Source: Leptolyngbyaceae cyanobacterium bins.349 (lineage in GTDB: Bacteria; Cyanobacteriota; Cyanobacteriia; Leptolyngbyales; Leptolyngbyaceae). From it: a DNA stretch of 64,000 nt. The position numbers were made by a program, and so were the translations under genes. The stretch is from contig JANRIS010000050.1 of assembly GCA_033764685.1 (NCBI GenBank), forward strand, positions 98,034 through 162,033. Reading direction: 5' to 3'. Shown piece after piece: positions 1-6,395 of the stretch (positions within the stretch are counted from its first letter, which is position 1; every line of letters starts with the position of its first letter). The notes below the pieces were generated by a model, which was not told the DNA's origin, searched no databases, and saw only the letters and a program-made list of their open reading frames with translations.

Positions 1-180
1 GCGATAATCACCGGTACGAATACGGTACTCATTGTCAGAACCTTTCATCTTGACCACTCCATCAGGGCGTGGGGCTTCGGCAAGTTCCTGAATCTTGACA
101 GCAATGCGATCGTAAACGTCATCAGGCAAAGCATCTAGCTGTTTCTGCACAGCTTTCGGTGTGATAATGGTGTAAGTCAT
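1..180 (-). CDS. RelE/ParE-family type II toxin, N-terminal part only (the gene runs off the left edge of the window)
   Basis: My own reverse-complement translation from the ATG at 180-178 gives MTYTIITPKAVQKQLDALPDDVYDRIAVKIQELAEAPRPDGVVKMKGSDNEYRIRTGDYR. The KMKG...YRIR.GDYR block is the RelE/ParE core. The start overlaps the stop of the upstream antitoxin ORF (177-179) as ATGA. Confidence 0.65.
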   Translation of the reverse strand, partial: MTYTIITPKAVQKQLDALPDDVYDRIAVKIQELAEAPRPDGVVKMKGSDNEYRIRTGDYR

Positions 181-416
181 GCCGATCGCTCTGCCCGTTG
201 CACCCTGTATTCATCAAAGGTCAGGTAATCCCCTGCTGTGTAATCAGCACGGGCAGCTTGAATTTCAGCAATGTCCTCAGTCGAATCCTCATCGTCGGGA
301 AACAATTCCGCTTCTAAAAGCTCCCAAAGCTGATGTTTTTCAGCAATGCCTAGTGAGGAAATTGCTTGCAACAATGATTGAAATGAGATGTTTACTTTCA
401 CAGTATTGTCAGCCAT
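177..416 (-). CDS. Type II antitoxin-like small acidic protein, partner of the RelE/ParE toxin
   Basis: 79-aa ORF with an acidic centre (DDEDSTED) and a C-terminal AARADYTAGDYLTFDEY motif typical of cyanobacterial RelE/ParE antitoxins. It overlaps the downstream toxin start by 4 nt. A GGAGG-like sequence lies upstream (tggagg at ~424-429 on the minus strand). Confidence 0.6.
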   Translation of the reverse strand: MADNTVKVNISFQSLLQAISSLGIAEKHQLWELLEAELFPDDEDSTEDIAEIQAARADYTAGDYLTFDEYRVQRAERSA

Positions 417-434
417 TAGAACTTACCTCCATTT

Positions 435-529
435 TTATTTTGCATCGTATATTTTTAATTGCTCCTGTGCCCATTCTCGCAGTTGTTCATCGGGATCATT
501 GAGGGCGCGATCGCAAAGCGATCCGAAGT
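435..529 (-). repeat. Orphan copy C of the 3' end of the NACHT-HEAT gene (non-functional remnant)
   Basis: Minus-strand reading gives DFGSLCDRALNDPDEQLREWAQEQLKIYDAK*. Nucleotides 457-514 match 54 of 59 positions of the authentic gene end (about 1577-1635) by hand alignment. Homology begins at a HIP1 site. Confidence 0.8.
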
Positions 530-559
530 CTCAGGACGGTCGAATGGAGGTTAGGAGAG

Positions 560-843
560 TCAGCTATTTTTGTAGACATCACCTCTACTTCCAATCGCAT
601 AAATCTCAACATCGCCGGAATTCATGTCAACTGTAAAAATCAAACGAATTTTGCCAACTCGTAGCCTGTAAAAACCTTCCCATTCTCCTTTCATTTGTTT
701 GAATCGAGTTCTGTAAATGGAATAATGCTTTGCTCTTCAACAGCAGTCAATCGTTGATTTAGCTTCTCTTGAATTCGGCTCAGGGTGTCAGGATCAGTTT
801 TCTCAATAAATTTGATTGCTGGCTTACGAAATTTGATTGCCAT
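560..843 (-). pseudogene. RelE/ParE-family toxin split by an apparent frameshift
   Basis: Hand translation. Piece 1 (843-691) reads MAIKFRKPAIKFIEKTDPDTLSRIQEKLNQRLTAVEEQSIIPFTELDSNK*. Piece 2 (694-560, a different frame) reads MKGEWEGFYRLRVGKIRLIFTVDMNSGDVEIYAIGSRGDVYKNS*. Joined, they make one RelE/ParE-like protein (KG...YRLRVG.IRLIF core). Neither piece reached the 60-aa ORF cutoff. Confidence 0.6.
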
Positions 844-1045
844 GCTTCACCCAAGCAGTCATGTCAATCGCTTTCTCGTCCTGGTAATTGGCAGGTGAGC
901 CAAAGTCAGTCTCTAACTCCGCTTGTTCTTCATCATCCACATAGGGCGTGAGAATTTTGCAAAGTAGCAATCGCTCTTCCCGCAACACTTCCCGCATACT
1001 TTCTTTAATTAGTGCTTTAAGTTCTTGAATCTCCATGCTCATCAC
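824..1045 (-). CDS. Type II antitoxin-like protein, partner of the frameshifted RelE/ParE
   Basis: 73-aa ORF containing PYVDDEEQAELETDFGSPANYQDE...DMTAWVK, a common cyanobacterial RelE-associated antitoxin pattern. Its 3' end overlaps the toxin start at 843 by 20 nt. Confidence 0.55.
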   Translation of the reverse strand: MMSMEIQELKALIKESMREVLREERLLLCKILTPYVDDEEQAELETDFGSPANYQDEKAIDMTAWVKHGNQIS

Positions 1046-1084
1046 CTTTGATTTAAGATTGGTTTGTCTTTCAAGTCGTTTCTA

Positions 1085-1198
1085 TTAGTTTTTCTCCTCT
1101 ATCTTTTTCAACTGCTTCTGTGCCCATTCTCGCAGTTGCTCATCAGGATCGCTGAGGGCGCGATCGCGCAGCAGTTCAAAAGTTTTGGAATGAGTGGG
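1085..1198 (-). repeat. Orphan copy B of the 3' end of the NACHT-HEAT gene (non-functional remnant)
   Basis: Minus-strand reading gives FPTHSKTFELLRDRALSDPDEQLREWAQKQLKKIEEKN*. About 75 of 90 nt are identical to 1577-1666 by hand alignment. It starts immediately after the stop codon of the 1202-1414 ORF. Confidence 0.8.
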
Positions 1199-1201
1199 AA
1201 A

Positions 1202-1414
1202 TTAACCTTTCCAATTTTGTTTAGCTCTGGAAAAGATCTCGTCTAGTTGCTGTTCTTCATAGATCTGACGAAAAATTTCTACATAGTCAGTTGAATTCTG
1301 GTTAATTAATGCTAGAAAGCGCAGAGTTGCTGCCATACCGAGTTCCTGTTTGAGGGTGGCAATTACTCTGACTCGAAGCTGAGCATCATTCATGGCTGGG
1401 ATGGAATCTGTCAT
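1202..1414 (-). CDS. Small conserved antitoxin-like protein (unnamed family)
   Basis: 70-aa ORF. Its start overlaps the stop of the upstream PIN-like stub as ATGA. The pattern ...LRFLALINQNSTDYVEIFRQIYEEQQLDEIFSRAKQNW resembles small proteins I recall next to PIN-type genes in cyanobacteria. This is memory only. Confidence 0.4.
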   Translation of the reverse strand: MTDSIPAMNDAQLRVRVIATLKQELGMAATLRFLALINQNSTDYVEIFRQIYEEQQLDEIFSRAKQNWKG

Positions 1415-1545
1415 GGGGTTTCTCTCCGGATATAATCAACTGGATTCATCACTTCACAAGCTAATGCTTCAATTTGAATGCGAATCTGATTGGGGTCATC
1501 AAATCTTCGCTGAAAGCAGTTGTAGTCCAGGTAAATTAAGTCCAT
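1411..1545 (-). pseudogene. PIN-like toxin, N-terminal stub only (44 codons)
   Basis: MDLIYLDYNCFQRRFDDPNQIRIQIEALACEV resembles the N terminus (first acidic motif, (I/L)YLD..C..RPFDDQ.Q.RI..EAEA) of ~150-aa PIN-like proteins. The ORF stops after 44 codons. Its ATG (1545-1543) overlaps the last codons of the NACHT ORF. Confidence 0.35.
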
Positions 1546-4500
1546 CCGCTTGCTCCTCCCTGGCTCTCCATCTGTTGCAATTGCTCCTGTGCCCATTGGC
1601 GTAGTTGTTCATCGGGGTCATTGAGGGCGCGATCGCGCAGCAGTTCAAGAGTTTTAGGATGAGATGGATGGTAGTTCAGAAATTCATTTAGAATGAACCA
1701 TTTCGACTCTTGTGCTTGTGGAAGAAAATGATGCTGTAGCCATATCAGAGTATCTGTTTTATCACCGTAATGCTCGATTATTTCTTCTACCACTTGTCGC
1801 TGAGGAAACTGCTCAAGTCTGTCAAGAATAAATTGTTGCACCCACGTTAAAGCTGTTGAATTTTTGCCATAGTATCGAACGATTGCTACTAAAGCAGATA
1901 TTTGAACATCTGAATCTTCGTCTTGTTGAGCGTAATTCATCAGCTGTTCTAGAGATTTTGGATCACCTGCGTAATACTCAGCAATTGTGAACACTGCATC
2001 AGATACTCCATTTCTAACCAATGATTGTAGTGATGATAAAGCTTGTGGCTGATTCTTTAAATATCTCCCGATCATCTCTAAGACAAATGATGAAATCACC
2101 TCATCTTTACCGAAGACATCATTCAGCAGCCATGGCAGAGTTTGAGGATCATCTGAAAAATGGCGAGACACTGCTGATACCAGCGGTATTATCTCCCACC
2201 ACTCTGAATTGTCAATCATCTCCCACTGCTCTTTCAGCCATAGAAGCGTATCTGATCTATCTTGAAAATACTTGGAAATTCGATTGCAAATTGCATAGAG
2301 AATATCATGCAGATTTTCCAGAAGATTATGGTTGTTCTTGGTGGAAAACTTAGCTGCTAAAAGACTAGAAGAATGATCTTTATAAAACTCTTTCAGCATT
2401 GATAATAATCGAGAACCAATTAACTCAGTTATTTCTGATTTTCCTATCTCTCCGAAGCAATCAGTTGCGATCAAAAGTTTCTTCAGTGAATGGCTTGCCT
2501 GATATCCCTCATACTCTTCATCACCTTCAGGACAACCGAAATCTTCATCAATGTACTCAGGCTCTTGTTTTATCAGAAACTCGATTAACTCACCTGCAAA
2601 CCTAGGATCGATCGCCCCACAAATGAGCCTCAAAACCTCATGCCAAGTTTCATCTTGCCAATGGTTCCCAAACACCTCATCGCGGAGTTGTTCAAAGGTG
2701 AGGGTGCGTTGTTTTTCAAAGCGATGAACAATTTCAACGGCACAAAAATATTCTAAAAAGGTGCGGTGCATGAAGCCGTAGGTGTCGGCTCCGCGATAGC
2801 AGAGGATGAAGTTGCGTTCTCGGAGTTGTTGAATTAAGCGATTGGCTTTTTCACGGGGTTCGCTGAAGCCCTGATCACGCAAATAGTCCGTCAAAATGCG
2901 GGTGAGGCGATCGCTGCTAATCAAATTTCCCTTTAGACCTTCTTCGCCTGCCTGCATCTCATAGGCGATCGCCCGCAACATCTCCTTTTTTTCTCGTCGC
3001 CCGATCGCGTCCATTGGGATCTGCAACTGCTTATGGTCTACATCCCAGTGGTAGAGCAACACGCGCGAAGCCTGATCGTAGAGATCGGCGCGATCGCGGG
3101 GGAGTTCCTGCCGTCGATTCAGGATTGCCATCATCGTCAGCAACAGCGGATTATCTGCCAGGTTGGCGATCGCTTTAGAGTTGGCGATCGCATCCTTCAA
3201 GCGCTGTTTTAGCCGGACTTTATCGGGATCGCTGCCCATTGAGAGGTCATACCAACGATCGATGAATTCGTGCATCTCGTCGGTATTGAGGGATTGAATG
3301 GTGAAGTGTCGGAATCCGCTGTGCTGAAGGCGATCGGGGTTGTAACCGATGCTGCGGGATGTGACTAATATCTGAGCTTTGGGATATTGCTGGGAAAAGC
3401 GAATGATGTCATCGATGACGGTGGCTTGGGTGGCGCGATCGAACACCTCATCCAGACCATCAAACATCACCCGCGTTGGATTCTCTAGCAAATGCTGATG
3501 TAATTGTTGCTGATCAAACTGCCAATCGACACCGCGACCTCGATGCAAAAATTCGAGGAAGTTAGCAGATGGATTGATGGCAAATTCTCGCAACTCAATC
3601 AATAAGGGCAGTTTTTCTGTTTTGACCTCGACCCACTCCAGTGCCAGATATTGCAACAGACTCGACTTACCCGAACCTGGATCGCCCAGAATTACTGCCC
3701 GTTGTGCGTAAGATTCGATCCCCCTAAATCCCTCTTGAAAAGGGGGACTTTCACTTTCGGTTCCCTCCTTGTTAAGGAGGGCTAGGGAGGATCGCCCCTG
3801 TCCGATCACCTCGAAAACTTTTCGGGCAGGTTGCGTCCAGAAGTCAGACTTCTCTAAGAAGTCCGACTTCTGGACATCGCGAGGCAGGTCATAGCGCAGG
3901 GGGGGCAGGGCTTCTCGTACCGTTTGCTCGATGAACATAGCCCAGAGCTTGATGGCATCGGCGCGATCGGTGCTGTCGAGGGTAAACAACCTCAAATAGC
4001 CATAATTAGTCTGCAAAGTATGGCGATACGTCTCAATATCAAATCCGGGTGAGAGTTGCGCCGTATTGCGGGCAATGTTTTCCAGGAGTTCGGTGTCCAG
4101 GAGCGATCGCAATTCTGGCGATTCTCGCACAATCCGCCGCACTTTTTTGACATATTCGCTGCCAATCCGCTGCCAATCGAAATCTGCTGGCATGGGCGGA
4201 AAGGGTTGCTGCCTGAATAAAGACTTTTGCCAGGTTGCTGACAGCGTTTCAATGTCAATCGCACGACAGTCTTGCTCAAATGCCTTGCCCAGAATCGGTT
4301 TTACCGTGTCATCCTGAACAAACTGAAGTAAGGGTTGCTCATAGCGATCGCGAATCGCTAATTCCGAAATCCCCTGATCCAGCAACTCATCTTCTACGAG
4401 CAGTAAAAAGGCTTGTAATGCCTCTGCGATCGCTTTCTTTGCTGCCTCTGGTTTGGCCGCGACAACCCCGTCCTTCAAACATCCTTTGAAAAAATCTTTC

Positions 4501-4598
4501 ACATAATCTTCAGCGGCAGCCTGTCCTAACTTCAAGACTTGCTCAAAGATGACTTTTCCCAGTTCTGCGGTGGCAATCGTCGCGAACCATTCCAGCAT
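1536..4598 (-). CDS. NACHT (STAND) P-loop NTPase with an uncharacterised ~300-aa helical N-terminal domain and C-terminal HEAT-like repeats
   Basis: 1020-aa ORF. Walker A is AVILGDPGSGKSSLLQYLA and Walker B is RVMFDGLDEV, followed by ILVTSR, the usual NACHT layout. The C-terminal third is helical repeats ending in RDRALNDPDEQLRQWAQEQL, a HEAT/PBS-lyase-like repeat. Confidence 0.85.
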   Translation of the reverse strand: MLEWFATIATAELGKVIFEQVLKLGQAAAEDYVKDFFKGCLKDGVVAAKPEAAKKAIAEALQAFLLLVEDELLDQGISELAIRDRYEQPLLQFVQDDTVKPILGKAFEQDCRAIDIETLSATWQKSLFRQQPFPPMPADFDWQRIGSEYVKKVRRIVRESPELRSLLDTELLENIARNTAQLSPGFDIETYRHTLQTNYGYLRLFTLDSTDRADAIKLWAMFIEQTVREALPPLRYDLPRDVQKSDFLEKSDFWTQPARKVFEVIGQGRSSLALLNKEGTESESPPFQEGFRGIESYAQRAVILGDPGSGKSSLLQYLALEWVEVKTEKLPLLIELREFAINPSANFLEFLHRGRGVDWQFDQQQLHQHLLENPTRVMFDGLDEVFDRATQATVIDDIIRFSQQYPKAQILVTSRSIGYNPDRLQHSGFRHFTIQSLNTDEMHEFIDRWYDLSMGSDPDKVRLKQRLKDAIANSKAIANLADNPLLLTMMAILNRRQELPRDRADLYDQASRVLLYHWDVDHKQLQIPMDAIGRREKKEMLRAIAYEMQAGEEGLKGNLISSDRLTRILTDYLRDQGFSEPREKANRLIQQLRERNFILCYRGADTYGFMHRTFLEYFCAVEIVHRFEKQRTLTFEQLRDEVFGNHWQDETWHEVLRLICGAIDPRFAGELIEFLIKQEPEYIDEDFGCPEGDEEYEGYQASHSLKKLLIATDCFGEIGKSEITELIGSRLLSMLKEFYKDHSSSLLAAKFSTKNNHNLLENLHDILYAICNRISKYFQDRSDTLLWLKEQWEMIDNSEWWEIIPLVSAVSRHFSDDPQTLPWLLNDVFGKDEVISSFVLEMIGRYLKNQPQALSSLQSLVRNGVSDAVFTIAEYYAGDPKSLEQLMNYAQQDEDSDVQISALVAIVRYYGKNSTALTWVQQFILDRLEQFPQRQVVEEIIEHYGDKTDTLIWLQHHFLPQAQESKWFILNEFLNYHPSHPKTLELLRDRALNDPDEQLRQWAQEQLQQMESQGGASGWT
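3717..3793. repeat. Small palindromic dispersed-repeat-like insertion inside the NACHT ORF, in frame
   Basis: The ends gatccccCTA / TAGggaggatc form inverted termini. A perfect internal hairpin ccctcctt-gtt-aaggaggg lies at 3763-3781. It encodes ...LNKEGTESESPPFQEGFRGIE just N-terminal of the P-loop (P-loop DNA at about 3663-3690). Confidence 0.55.
3836..3874. repeat. Two adjacent copies of a 15-nt hairpin (agaagtcNgacttct) forming a 39-nt near-palindrome inside the NACHT ORF
   Basis: The sequence tccagaagtcagacttctctaagaagtccgacttctgga nearly equals its own reverse complement. It encodes the duplicated peptide QKSDFLEKSDFW. Confidence 0.7.
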
Positions 4599-4883
4599 GG
4601 CAACATTTTAGACGTAGCTGCTCTTCTACTATCGCATTCCCATTCAACTGGGTGCATCCCACAAATGCAGCCCTCATCCTACAATCCCTCTCCCAGGGAG
4701 GGCTACCGTGTATACATAAGGACTGCGATCGCCCAAGACTTCGCCCAAAATCAACGGGTTGCGCTGGGGTGGCATCGGTGGGGTGGCAAGGAGATTGGTG
4801 AACCCAGCGATTTGCTGAATGAATCGCCCGCCGCGGCCCATCGCCCTTCATAATGGAGACAGTCCGCTTTACATTGCTTCATC

Positions 4884-6395
4884 ATGGCGAGAGATCTTCA
4901 AGGGTTTATTCAACTGCTAGAGCAAAAGGGCAACCTGCGCCGCATCTCGGCACTGGTAGATCCCAATTTGGAAATTGCCGAAATTGCGAATCGGATGTTG
5001 CAAAGCGGTGGTCCGGCGCTCTTGTTTGAAAACGTGAAGGGGTCGCCTTATCCTGTGGCCATTAACCTGATGGGGACCGTCGAGCGGGTTTGCTGGGCCA
5101 TGAACATGGAGCACCCCGCAGAATTAGAAACGCTGGGTCAAAAACTGGCACTACTGTATCAACCGCGCCCGCCCAAAAAGATTTCGCAAGCGGTGGAGTT
5201 GGGCAAAGCCTTGTTTGATGTGATTAAAGCGAAACCCGATCGCGATTTGTTTCCCCCCTGTCAGCAAGTGGTGTTGAAAGGCGATGAGGTGGATTTGACC
5301 AAGCTGCCGTTGCTTAGAGTCTATCCGGGGGATGCGGCGAAGGTGATCACCTTAGGCTTGATGATTACCAAAGACCCCGAAAATAAAACGGTGAATGTGG
5401 GGGTGTATCGCCTGCAATTGCAATCCAAAAATACGATGACGGTGCAATGGCTTTCAGTGCGGGGCGCGACACGCCATCTTCGCAAAGCCGCCGAAATGGG
5501 TAAGAAGTTAGAAGTGGCGATCGCGATCGGGGTAGATCCACTTGTAATCATGGCGGCGGCGACTCCGCTTCCGGTGGACTTATCAGAATGGCTATTTGCT
5601 GGACTTTACAGCGGTCGAGGAATTAACTTAGCAAAATGCAAAACCGTGGATCTGGAAGTGCCTGCCGATTCTGAGTTTGTGCTGGAGGGCACGATTACTC
5701 CCGGTGAGGTGGCGATCGATGGTCCTGCTGGCGATCACATGGGCTATTACGGCGGGGTGAATGAAAAAGCGCCCCTGCTGCATTTCCACTGTATGACTCA
5801 TCGCAAAAACCCGATTTACCTGACTACGTTTAGTGGTCGTCCGCCGAAAGAAGACGCGATGATGGCGATCGCCCTCAACCGGATTTACACCCCCATCCTG
5901 CGGCAACAGGTGCCGGAAATTGTGGATTTCTTCCTGCCGATGGAAGGGCTGTCTTACAAAATTGCGGTGATTGCGATCGACAAAGCTTATCCTGGTCATG
6001 CGCGGCGGGCGGCGTTAGCCTTCTGGACCGCACTGCCCCAGTTCAACTACACCAAATTTGTGGTTGTCGTAGACAAGGACATTAACATCCGCGATCCGCG
6101 TCAGGTGGTATGGGCCATCACTTCTAAGGTGGATGCGGTGCGAGATGTGTTCATTCTGCCAGATAACCATTTTGACTCCCTAGACTTTGCCACCGAACGC
6201 CCCGGACTCGGCAGCCGTATGGGCATCGACGCGACAACGAAAATGTACCCTGAAAGCGATCGCCCCTGGAGCGATACCCTGGAACCGGATCCTGACACCG
6301 CTGCAATGGTCGATCGCCGTTGGGCAGAATATGGCTTAGCCGACTTGAAACTGGACGAGGTGAATCCCAACCTGTTTGGCTATGATGTGAAGTAG
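4884..6395 (+). CDS. ubiD: UbiD-family (de)carboxylase (4-hydroxy-3-polyprenylbenzoate decarboxylase type, plastoquinone/ubiquinone pathway)
   Basis: 503 aa. The N terminus MARDLQGFIQLLEQKGNLRRISALVDPNLEIAEIANR...GGPALLFENVKG and the overall length are characteristic of UbiD. Confidence 0.9.
   Translation: MARDLQGFIQLLEQKGNLRRISALVDPNLEIAEIANRMLQSGGPALLFENVKGSPYPVAINLMGTVERVCWAMNMEHPAELETLGQKLALLYQPRPPKKISQAVELGKALFDVIKAKPDRDLFPPCQQVVLKGDEVDLTKLPLLRVYPGDAAKVITLGLMITKDPENKTVNVGVYRLQLQSKNTMTVQWLSVRGATRHLRKAAEMGKKLEVAIAIGVDPLVIMAAATPLPVDLSEWLFAGLYSGRGINLAKCKTVDLEVPADSEFVLEGTITPGEVAIDGPAGDHMGYYGGVNEKAPLLHFHCMTHRKNPIYLTTFSGRPPKEDAMMAIALNRIYTPILRQQVPEIVDFFLPMEGLSYKIAVIAIDKAYPGHARRAALAFWTALPQFNYTKFVVVVDKDINIRDPRQVVWAITSKVDAVRDVFILPDNHFDSLDFATERPGLGSRMGIDATTKMYPESDRPWSDTLEPDPDTAAMVDRRWAEYGLADLKLDEVNPNLFGYDVK

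Follow-up and report, generated by a model that had tools for sequence, protein, structure and literature searches.

The gene at positions 1536..4598 (minus strand) of a 64,000-nucleotide stretch of DNA from Leptolyngbyaceae cyanobacterium bins.349 (contig JANRIS010000050.1, positions 98,034 to 162,033; called the window in what follows) is a single open reading frame (ORF) of 1020 amino acids, P0001, in which an NNH2 domain, a NACHT nucleoside triphosphatase (NTPase) module and HEAT-like repeats follow one another. The product is probably a bacterial NLR-type switch of the STAND class whose sensor body is exchanged as a cassette between two conserved flanks, a head anchor and a tail. Across the family the body has been replaced recurrently and recently between these flanks and, as judged by similarity, the same types of body occur in different lineages and even in different NACHT clades. 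Cassette replacement is thus a well-supported mode of sensor diversification, and one that is undescribed in the literature searched.

The gene runs leftwards in the window, so the AT-rich interval 1680-2620 encodes the C-terminal third of the protein. The head anchor (residues 633-660, beginning LTFEQLRDEVFGNHWQDETWHEVLRLICG; 2619..2702, minus strand) is kept even in a distant NACHT clade with Mrr-type nuclease domains, and it is here that the DNA homology of relatives stops. It is followed by the hypervariable low-GC sensor body (residues 661-975; 1674..2618, minus strand), which has a GC content of 0.388 and consists of HEAT-like units that recur about every 34 amino acids. The conserved tail (tail0; residues 976-1020 and the stop codon; 1536..1673, minus strand) is about 35 codons long, contains a HIP1 octamer at 1629 and belongs to repeat family D1.

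Results

Replacement of the sensor body between conserved flanks

The family is large and cyanobacterial, with 2,587 homologs at E<=0.001 among 8,000 candidates scored, and 57 homologous loci were fetched. Codon alignment and the calculation of nonsynonymous and synonymous divergence (dN and dS) included 37 genes of at least 800 amino acids, with L046 and L050 left out, and protein identities were correlated in a set of 128 proteins that remained after 11 duplicate rows had been dropped. In the 37-gene alignment, residues 1-270 have a mean pairwise protein identity of 0.56-0.81 and residues 301-660 one of 0.78-0.95; it falls to 0.16-0.36 over residues 661-960 and comes back to 0.45-0.57 over the last 60. 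Among the 128 non-redundant proteins the identities of the N-terminal and NACHT parts are correlated (Spearman 0.63), while those of the NACHT module and the C-terminal part (C-part) are not (0.08), nor are those of the N-terminal part and the C-part (0.03). The C-parts of the same proteins form 83 clusters at 50% identity and the NACHT modules a single cluster at 70%, and in six of the 12 pairs with NACHT modules at least 97% identical the C-parts are less than 40% identical.

Replacement can be followed in pairs of genes. Between L009 and L018, the N-terminal part has a dS of 0.00, the NACHT module one of 0.08 and the tail one of 0.31, while the body has a dN of 1.2 and a saturated dS. Comparison of the two loci with blastn gives 98.9% identity over 2,862 nucleotides ending at codon 647, then a body that is unalignable as DNA, and 89% identity over 227 nucleotides from the tail onwards. 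The same pattern is found in L027/L028, L005/L012 and L015/L023, with a dS of 0.2-0.44 in the flanks, and in four further pairs the DNA homology breaks at codons 634-661 and resumes in the tail. The window gene itself, when compared with L022, L055, L003, L018 and L004 (84-87% identity), loses homology at codons 657-677 and regains it at codons 979-982. This gap to five relatives corresponds to about 1674-2620 in the window and is nearly identical to the AT-rich interval. The L009 sequence is found on a 3.9-kb contig in a Planctomycetaceae metagenome-assembled genome and its partner in Nodosilinea sp. P-1105 (L018); given the 98.9% identity the contig is probably cyanobacterial and wrongly binned.

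Similar bodies are also combined with different partners. L009 is 0.83-0.86 identical to P0014 and P0090 in the C-part and 0.55-0.83 identical in the N-terminal part, and pairs among these proteins combine C-parts of 0.83-0.84 identity with N-terminal domains of 0.50-0.55. The N-terminal domains of the family form six clusters at 70% identity, and the alike C-parts and divergent N-terminal domains of these three proteins indicate that the NNH2 end may be exchanged too.

The body of the window gene

The bodies nearest to that of the window gene (query residues 656-1020) are those of P0121-P0124, with 51-56% identity over 98-99% of the region. The NACHT modules of these four proteins are merely 24-28% identical to the window's, and two of the proteins, P0122 and P0124, start with an Mrr-type restriction endonuclease domain (Mrr_cat) in place of NNH2. 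Proteins with a NACHT module 92-95% identical to the window's, on the other hand, carry bodies that are 29-31% identical to its body. In the alignment of the window protein with P0122, an identity of about 25% flips to near identity at residue 633 (LTFEQLRDEVFGNHWQDETWHEVLRLICG), which shows that the head anchor is common to the NNH2 and Mrr clades. DNA was compared for one Mrr-type locus, that of P0122 (L059), which is 67% identical over 1,032 nucleotides of the body; the exchange that involved the window body is thus not recent.

In the NACHT tree a fully supported split sets the four Mrr-type rows apart from all 28 NNH2-type rows. The body tree instead joins the window, P0119 and the four Mrr-type rows, with 100% support in the Shimodaira-Hasegawa-like approximate likelihood ratio test (SH-aLRT). 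The window body accordingly appears to be of a type whose other carriers are Mrr-nuclease NACHT proteins. Separate phylogenies of the NACHT and HEAT parts, which a preliminary description of this DNA had proposed as a check on module swapping, are incongruent for two pairs in the approximately unbiased (AU) test: body data reject {window, L022}, which are sisters in the NACHT tree with 81% support (p-AU 1e-5), and NACHT data reject {L022, L027}, a sister pair of the body tree (p-AU 2.8e-7). Two other groupings are not rejected and are considered in the Discussion.

The preliminary description had suggested that the repeat module was acquired or swapped as a unit. Swapping as a unit is borne out by the recurrent replacements in relatives, by the decoupling of body and NACHT module and by the grouping of the window body with those of another NACHT clade, whereas a recent foreign uptake by this genome is not. 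The swapped unit also needs to be redrawn, to residues of about 661-975 between anchor and tail and not the entire C-terminal third.

The function of such a protein can be outlined from its class. The C-terminal HEAT-like solenoid would bind a trigger, which may be an invader protein or a guarded host protein; binding would lead the NACHT NTPase to oligomerise, and the NNH2 domains would then deliver the output. Exchange presumably takes place through homologous recombination in the flanks, where crossovers in the NACHT end or head anchor (633-660) and in the tail would swap the body wholesale.

The downstream array

The stop codon of the gene is followed by four small cassettes, with three orphan copies of its last 30-40 codons lying between them. 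Cassette 1 consists of a 44-codon stub (1411..1545, minus strand) of a conserved 147-amino acid ORF and of its partner, a 70-amino acid ORF (1202..1414, minus strand). About 290 nucleotides of the longer ORF are missing in comparison with L004, L011, L018, L024, L026 and L055; the pair is kept behind tails of the '...GWT' type, and DNA homology extends to the start of cassette 1 in nine loci. Where the 147-amino acid ORF is complete, its start overlaps the stop codon of the NACHT gene (L004:8913-9353 and equivalents). A 'PIN-like' label for the stub was rejected, as the full-length 147-amino acid homolog has no Pfam match at E<=0.01.

Orphan tail 1 (1085..1201, minus strand) is 80% identical over 30 amino acids and matches the hidden Markov model (HMM) of the tail with an E of 3e-20. 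Behind it lies cassette 2, a putative toxin-antitoxin (TA) pair. Its RelB-like antitoxin of 73 amino acids (824..1045, minus strand) matches PF25734 with an E of 9.4e-4, below the cut-off, and has a homolog in L005 beside an intact toxin; its RelE/ParE-type toxin (560..846, minus strand) is split between two frames, with a ParE_toxin match of 22.5 bits in the second piece and an intact homolog of 94 amino acids in L005. Orphan tail 2 (435..530, minus strand; tail HMM E 7e-16) is followed by cassette 3, in which an antitoxin of 79 amino acids (177..416, minus strand), also found beside a ParE toxin in L016 and L036, has no Pfam match. The ParE toxin of cassette 3 (86 amino acids, minus strand) occupies 1..180 and continues past the left edge of the window (contig C38:97953-98213), with 41.9 bits for ParE_toxin against a cut-off of 23. 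With a toxin above the Pfam cut-off and a small upstream partner gene, cassette 3 has the makeup of a type II TA system. The remaining units lie to the left of the window: orphan tail 3 (L001 9807-9923; 67% identity over 39 amino acids, HMM E 6e-19) and cassette 4 (L001 9236-9770), whose toxin reaches 14.8-14.9 bits, below the Pfam cut-off. Also to the left of the window on C38 are two plus-strand ORFs (L001 5594-5773 and 8843-9016) that end in a near-identical peptide of 22 residues, ...LVVCQDCFAGLKxLKTLxNWVL, a dispersed repeat with one copy at the far end of the array. A scan of the array for promoters and terminators gave five promoter-like sites against 2.7 expected, none of them in the tails on the strand of the gene.

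The units of the array have counterparts at the ends of intact genes. Orphan tail 1 with cassette 2 resembles the terminal tail and cassette of the intact L005 and L022 genes (74-79% DNA identity), and orphan tail 2 with cassette 3 resembles the gene termini of L010 and L041 (84-85%). For the tail now in use and cassette 1, nine further loci give matches (77-89%), and none of them carries a body related to that of the window gene. Because they match intact gene termini in other genomes, the orphan units, which the preliminary description had noticed as displaced 3'-end copies downstream, look like displaced former gene ends. In the family, 26 matches to the tail HMM were found in 16 of 58 loci, a few of them being fragmented genes and not true orphans; all lie downstream of the gene and on the same strand, and the orphan stubs sit in ORFs of 31-41 amino acids. 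TA toxins dominate in the 2 kb downstream of 31 loci, where 149 ORFs (the five of L046 excluded) include PIN in seven, ParE in six, HigB in five and RelE in four. In the 2 kb upstream (81 ORFs) ParE is found in two ORFs, and the other matches are to housekeeping families.

L022 has the tail, cassette 2 and cassette 3 in order together with a different body, a layout that fits the arrival in the window gene of a body with tail 0 and cassette 1 by way of a downstream crossover in tail 1. According to the exchange model, incoming DNA would often bring a tail and a TA cassette behind the body, and a downstream crossover in a tail copy would push the older tail and cassette further downstream, giving the array at 1-1545 and beyond. 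The TA cassettes would then travel with the body. A tentative extension of the model takes body, tail and TA cassette together as the unit of exchange. Anchor and tail would be portable recombination sites through which specificities are traded, even across NACHT clades with different effectors; the TA pair would act as an addiction module that keeps the new sensor, and the orphan tails would be a record of successive replacements.

It is also possible, although on balance doubtful, that the orphan tails come from TA cassettes that inserted independently at the tail, as an attachment or homology site, apart from any replacement of the sensor. Each orphan tail has one TA pair behind it and the order of the cassettes varies by locus, as independent insertion would have it. 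A TA pair is also found behind the gene in L059, of the other NACHT clade, where the Mrr-NACHT-HEAT gene is followed at L059:4071-4717 by an antitoxin and a RelE-like toxin that resembles the toxin of cassette 4. IS200-like Y1 transposase ORFs are present in two arrays (L005:9676-10131 and L012:8937-9401) and may provide an alternative route for cassette movement; two proteins with a Y1_Tnp domain, P0281 and P0282, also carry a tail-like stretch. Against this, in the comparisons that can be read, window/L022 and L005/L012, the extra proximal tail and cassette accompany a different body. The tail of L009/L018, with 89% identity against 98.9% upstream, likewise makes the replaced tract seem to extend past the tail. 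Two separate events still fit both of these observations.

Domain architecture and genomic context

The order of an N-terminal helical domain, NACHT and HEAT-like repeats given in the preliminary description agrees with the Pfam matches, three of which are above cut-off. The N-terminal domain had been left unassigned there but is clearly the Pfam family NNH2 (PF22734; residues 25-208; 3975..4526, minus strand), a named family of unknown function, with an E of 3.9e-60, 203.1 bits against a cut-off of 27 and a match that spans positions 2-180 of the 181 in the profile. A profile of 31 sequences of this domain found no relative in the PDB at E<=10; in the protein atlas its neighbours are the NNH3 and NNH1 clusters (0.90 and 0.87), which are to be taken as leads only. 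For the output of NNH2, a helical bundle that attacks membranes in the manner of HeLo/CC was considered as a speculative option. An in-frame insertion of about 30 amino acids (residues ~268-297; 3708..3797, minus strand), which most homologs do not have, lies in the linker between NNH2 and NACHT, where positions 271-300 of the 37-gene alignment are 79% gaps. The insertion is accompanied by an adjoining deletion of about 16 amino acids, and L002 and L036 have different insertions at the same spot, so the linker evidently tolerates inserts.

The NACHT module with its helical extension covers residues 301-632 (2703..3698, minus strand; PF05729, 52.7 bits against 26.7), of which the Pfam match itself covers residues 301-450. 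It has a Walker A motif, GDPGSGKS, from residue 305 and FDGLDEV from residue 379, in which D-G-L-D-E fits D[GAS]hDE. Kibby et al. (bioRxiv 10.1101/2022.07.19.500537) use Walker A, GxxxxGK[ST], and D[GAS]hDE after Walker B as the criterion for NACHT in the available text of their paper, where the name 'NACHT N-terminal helical' (NNH) is also coined. These motifs argue for membership in the NACHT clade of STAND NTPases. In the C-part, HEAT_2 is matched at residues 868-927 (32.4 bits against a cut-off of 27.7, with two stretches), and a motif D/N-x-x-T/S-L-x-W/L-L is repeated at C-part positions 125, 161, 194, 257, 291 and 324, with a spacing of 33-36 residues as in HEAT units. The sole match of the C-part in a phmmer search of the PDB was a TPR protein with an E of 0.77. 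No Avs or bNACHT model of PADLOC matched the window protein at E<=1.

A homolog of the gene is present in 11 of 31 related genomes, the window's own counted, and a complete genome from the same genus has no match on any of its contigs. In four genomes of that genus, homology to the window stops at the start of UbiD (UbiD at 4884-6395, stop at 4840-4866), and the NACHT locus together with at least 18 kb on that side has no counterpart beside UbiD in these four genomes. The window gene is an accessory gene at a synteny break. Neither of the genes directly beside it, UbiD and DUF6671, is a defence gene.

An antiphage role is suggested by analogy with the class to which the protein belongs. It is improbable, on the same material, that the protein is instead a STAND NTPase with a regulatory or scaffolding role in cell physiology, its variable repeats binding host partners. 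Such a role would agree with the missing effector enzyme, as the protein has no known effector enzyme domain and NNH2 is without known activity or PDB relative; it would also agree with the failure of any named antiphage model to reach its cut-off and with the nature of the two neighbours. It does not sit well with the patchy distribution, the position at a synteny break, a binding module that is extremely diverse and exchanged, or the clustering of TA cassettes downstream. Bacterial NACHT proteins that have been tested also defend against phage, as reported in the available text of Kibby et al. (10.1101/2022.07.19.500537).

Composition of the body

The compositional break that had been noticed by eye within the gene is confirmed at the codon level. 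The hand counts of G+C were exact (21/60 at 2281-2340 and 39/60 at 3061-3120; GC is 0.388 over 1680-2620), and the stretch without HIP1 is real, with sites at 1629 and 2907 and zero between them. Residues 1-655 are encoded with a GC of 0.506, a GC content at third codon positions (GC3) of 0.563 and eight HIP1 sites, and residues 656-1020 with a GC of 0.407, a GC3 of 0.351 and one HIP1 site. There is one GC3 change point, after codon 613 (609-663 within two units of log-likelihood), with a likelihood ratio (LR) of 50.6 that was matched by 0 of 500 permutations (chi-square p 1e-10). The break falls at the module boundary, where the motif ICGAIDPRFAGELIEFL begins at residue 659 and not at about 655 as first given. 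The HIP1 contrast of 8 against 1 is not significant in the window gene alone (binomial ~0.11 by hand) but becomes so when 39 family genes are pooled (p 1.2e-7), with 99 sites in 75.0 kb (1.32/kb) before the boundary and 14 in 38.8 kb (0.36/kb) after it.

The block is extreme within its genome. Its GC of 0.388 is at the 0.5th percentile among 11,167 1-kb windows of the 5.66-Mb genome, and the GC3 of 0.351 is at the 1.3rd percentile among 2,326 ORFs of at least 300 amino acids, the part encoding the N-terminal domain and NACHT being near the median. The preliminary description had called the C-terminal third compositionally foreign, but its low GC is no evidence of a recent foreign uptake by this genome, as homologous genes have the same GC3 drop. 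The drop was counted in the 40 of the 57 loci that have an ORF of at least 600 amino acids, a Walker A motif and at least 150 residues past the boundary. It exceeds 0.1 at the equivalent point in 37 of these 40 genes, with a median of 0.22; L027 falls short of this, as do two distant relatives whose hosts are very AT-rich. Along the 37-gene alignment GC3 goes from 0.47-0.67 to 0.22-0.37 in the body and then to 0.39-0.44 in the tail. Over 34 loci with a flank GC of 0.40-0.61 the GC3 of the body stays within 0.21-0.37 (standard deviation 0.033). Low GC3 and scarce HIP1 sites are a property of the bodies in every host examined and, being shared by the whole family, low GC3 cannot alone show a recent import into the host genome.

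It was considered that the GC3 of the NACHT module might track the host while that of the body does not. This was rejected, since neither follows the GC of the flanks (Spearman 0.12 for the N-terminal part, 0.08 for NACHT and 0.09 for the body). Raised synonymous conservation at the anchors, which would be a sign of DNA-level selection, is not seen either: at fourfold third positions, residues 631-660 have an identity of 0.41 and residues 991-1020 one of 0.52, compared with 0.30-0.56 elsewhere. The AT-richness of the bodies could come from a shared mobile pool, or from AT-biased mutation in a segment whose divergence prevents internal recombination. In the latter case a body without internal recombination would drift to an AT-biased equilibrium, and the recombining flanks would be held at a higher GC. 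This reading of the flanks builds on GC-biased gene conversion in bacteria.

A single recent horizontal acquisition, by which a low-GC foreign repeat module was fused to a resident NACHT gene, would account for the sharp change point, for the low percentile of the block and for the nearest relatives of the module on another NACHT clade. It is very unlikely all the same: the 37 homologous genes show the drop at any host GC, the nearest body is 51-56% identical as protein and 67% as DNA, leaving no recent donor in view, and the tail with cassette 1 is of the family's own type, matching nine other loci.

Discussion

Exchange of the sensor body as a cassette explains the recurrent breaks between conserved flanks, but several points weigh against it or limit its reach. 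The nearest known body is no more than 67% identical in DNA. The grouping {window, P0119, Mrr rows} is compatible with the NACHT data (p-AU 0.16), as {L009, L018} is with the body data (p-AU 0.067), so both of these cases rest on distances and dS and not on topology. In pairs with the same body type the identity is 0.73-0.87 in the C-part against 0.93-0.96 in NACHT; bodies of the same type thus diverge faster than NACHT, and fast evolution in situ also contributes. No silent full-length body reservoir was found near the gene or elsewhere in its genome, and shorter proteins, when searched, brought up for the most part fragments at contig ends and ORFs of orphan tails, the best at 36% and none a closer relative of the body. 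Composition says little on the residence time of the gene; the GC3 of the N-terminal and NACHT parts ignores flank GC too. For the immune reading, the EruA model (NCBIfam) gives 44.5 bits against a cut-off of 1000 and DS8 31 against 790, and the one notable PADLOC match, PDC-S60 (E 3.8e-7), covers residues 295-454, which is the NACHT core only. The link between body replacement and growth of the array, finally, is drawn from layouts, and separate TA insertion at the tail would leave the same pattern.

The least probable explanation is that nothing was exchanged and that the body diverged in place, by diversifying selection or targeted hypermutation, with AT-richness as a mutation bias: the 3-5 times faster divergence of the C-part than of NACHT in same-type pairs, the uniformly low GC3 of the body and the rapidly diversifying C-terminal region of another bNACHT clade in the available text of Kibby et al. 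would all fit, but body types are common to several lineages (L009, P0014 and P0090), the body-tree sisters L022 and L027 are a pairing that NACHT data reject, the window body groups with Mrr-clade bodies, and the L009 and L018 bodies are unalignable as DNA in spite of 98.9% identical flanks. Targeted hypermutation in particular is unlikely, because the sole reverse transcriptase of the genome (an RVT_1 match) is on another contig, C7, because the genome has no template-like repeat of the body (the repeats in 1-5000 are tails only) and because bodies are shared across lineages.

Comparison with known systems

The window family is similar to the bNACHT proteins of Kibby et al. (10.1101/2022.07.19.500537), which, in the available text, combine NACHT having D[GAS]hDE with an NNH domain and a C-terminal 'antigen receptor type' HEAT superstructure-forming repeat, are abundant in cyanobacteria and pair a conserved NACHT module with a C terminus that diversifies. 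The difference is that members of a single tight NACHT clade have here had the HEAT body swapped out whole between anchors that stay fixed, and that the body is also shared with a NACHT clade far removed from theirs. The same text of Kibby et al. includes no NNH2-HEAT family member among those tested and does not mention a compositional break, a conserved tail or orphan-tail arrays. The literature searched has no account of anchor-bounded sensor cassettes, of their compositional signature or of tail-anchored TA arrays in NACHT-HEAT genes.

In the orphan arrays of Rhs/CDI systems, older ends are displaced downstream, each with a short homology stub followed by small partner genes. Polymorphic toxin systems of this type, as treated in the available part of Zhang et al. 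2012 (PMC3482391), have a conserved main part and a variable C-terminal module replaced by cassette recombination, as in the window family. The variable part here is, in contrast, a set of sensor HEAT repeats and not a toxin, the orphans are the last ~30-40 codons and not whole modules, and the linked genes are ParE/RelE-type type II TA pairs and not cognate immunity genes. The window protein is also cytoplasmic, with no secretion signal domain among its Pfam matches. By analogy the locus appears to evolve like a polymorphic-toxin orphan array without being a member of that class.

One sensor type on several STAND clades (Avs7/Dsr1) has been reported in the available text of a Nature paper of 2026 (PMC13581612), in which recombination or swapping of sensors is not mentioned. 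The tripartite structure of effector, STAND NTPase and repeat sensor described there is shared by the window family, and Mrr-type nuclease effectors are found on the window's relatives P0122 and P0124. The window protein differs from Avs in its NACHT clade, in having no enzymatic effector and in matching no Avs model of PADLOC at E<=1.

The targets of diversity-generating retroelements (DGRs) have a short CLec/FGS tip that is mutated at adenines. DGR-diversified STAND sensors of multicellular bacteria have been described by Dore et al. (PNAS 2024, PMC10907252), and the likeness, so far as the available text goes, is that NLR-like proteins of filamentous cyanobacteria have a sensor end that is hypervariable. 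The window locus differs in that its variable part is a HEAT body of 300 amino acids with indels and not a short CLec/FGS tip, and there is neither a reverse transcriptase nearby nor a template/variable repeat pair, so the gene is not a DGR target.

Highly similar internal repeats reshuffle within the gene in the fungal NLR cases. In the window family, by contrast, the repeats of any one body differ strongly from each other, and what passes between genomes is the body as a whole. The two have in common that the sensor repeats are the fast-evolving part, which in fungal NLR genes is the part with enhanced diversity according to the available text of two papers (PMC13449251, PMC12222747).

Conclusions

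Bacterial NLR-like proteins are established as antiphage sensors, and the diversification of their recognition modules has so far been seen mostly as fast sequence evolution or, for one class, as retroelement mutagenesis. The locus studied here and its relatives show a third route, in which a sensor cassette is replaced wholesale between two conserved anchors, in some cases so recently that the flanks of the genes compared are still near-identical. Its signature can be read in the raw sequence as a uniformly low GC3 and few HIP1 sites, together with displaced ends that carry TA cassettes. A caution follows for other genes, as a low-GC block inside a gene need not mean a recent foreign import.

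If the exchange of sensor bodies is as proposed, the family would offer natural chimeras for mapping a sensor body to its trigger and defined junctions for engineered sensor swaps. The bodies would also be a test case for AT drift in hypervariable segments that are cold for recombination. Should body, tail and TA cassette indeed move as one unit, the locus would be an immune-receptor counterpart of the orphan arrays of polymorphic toxins.

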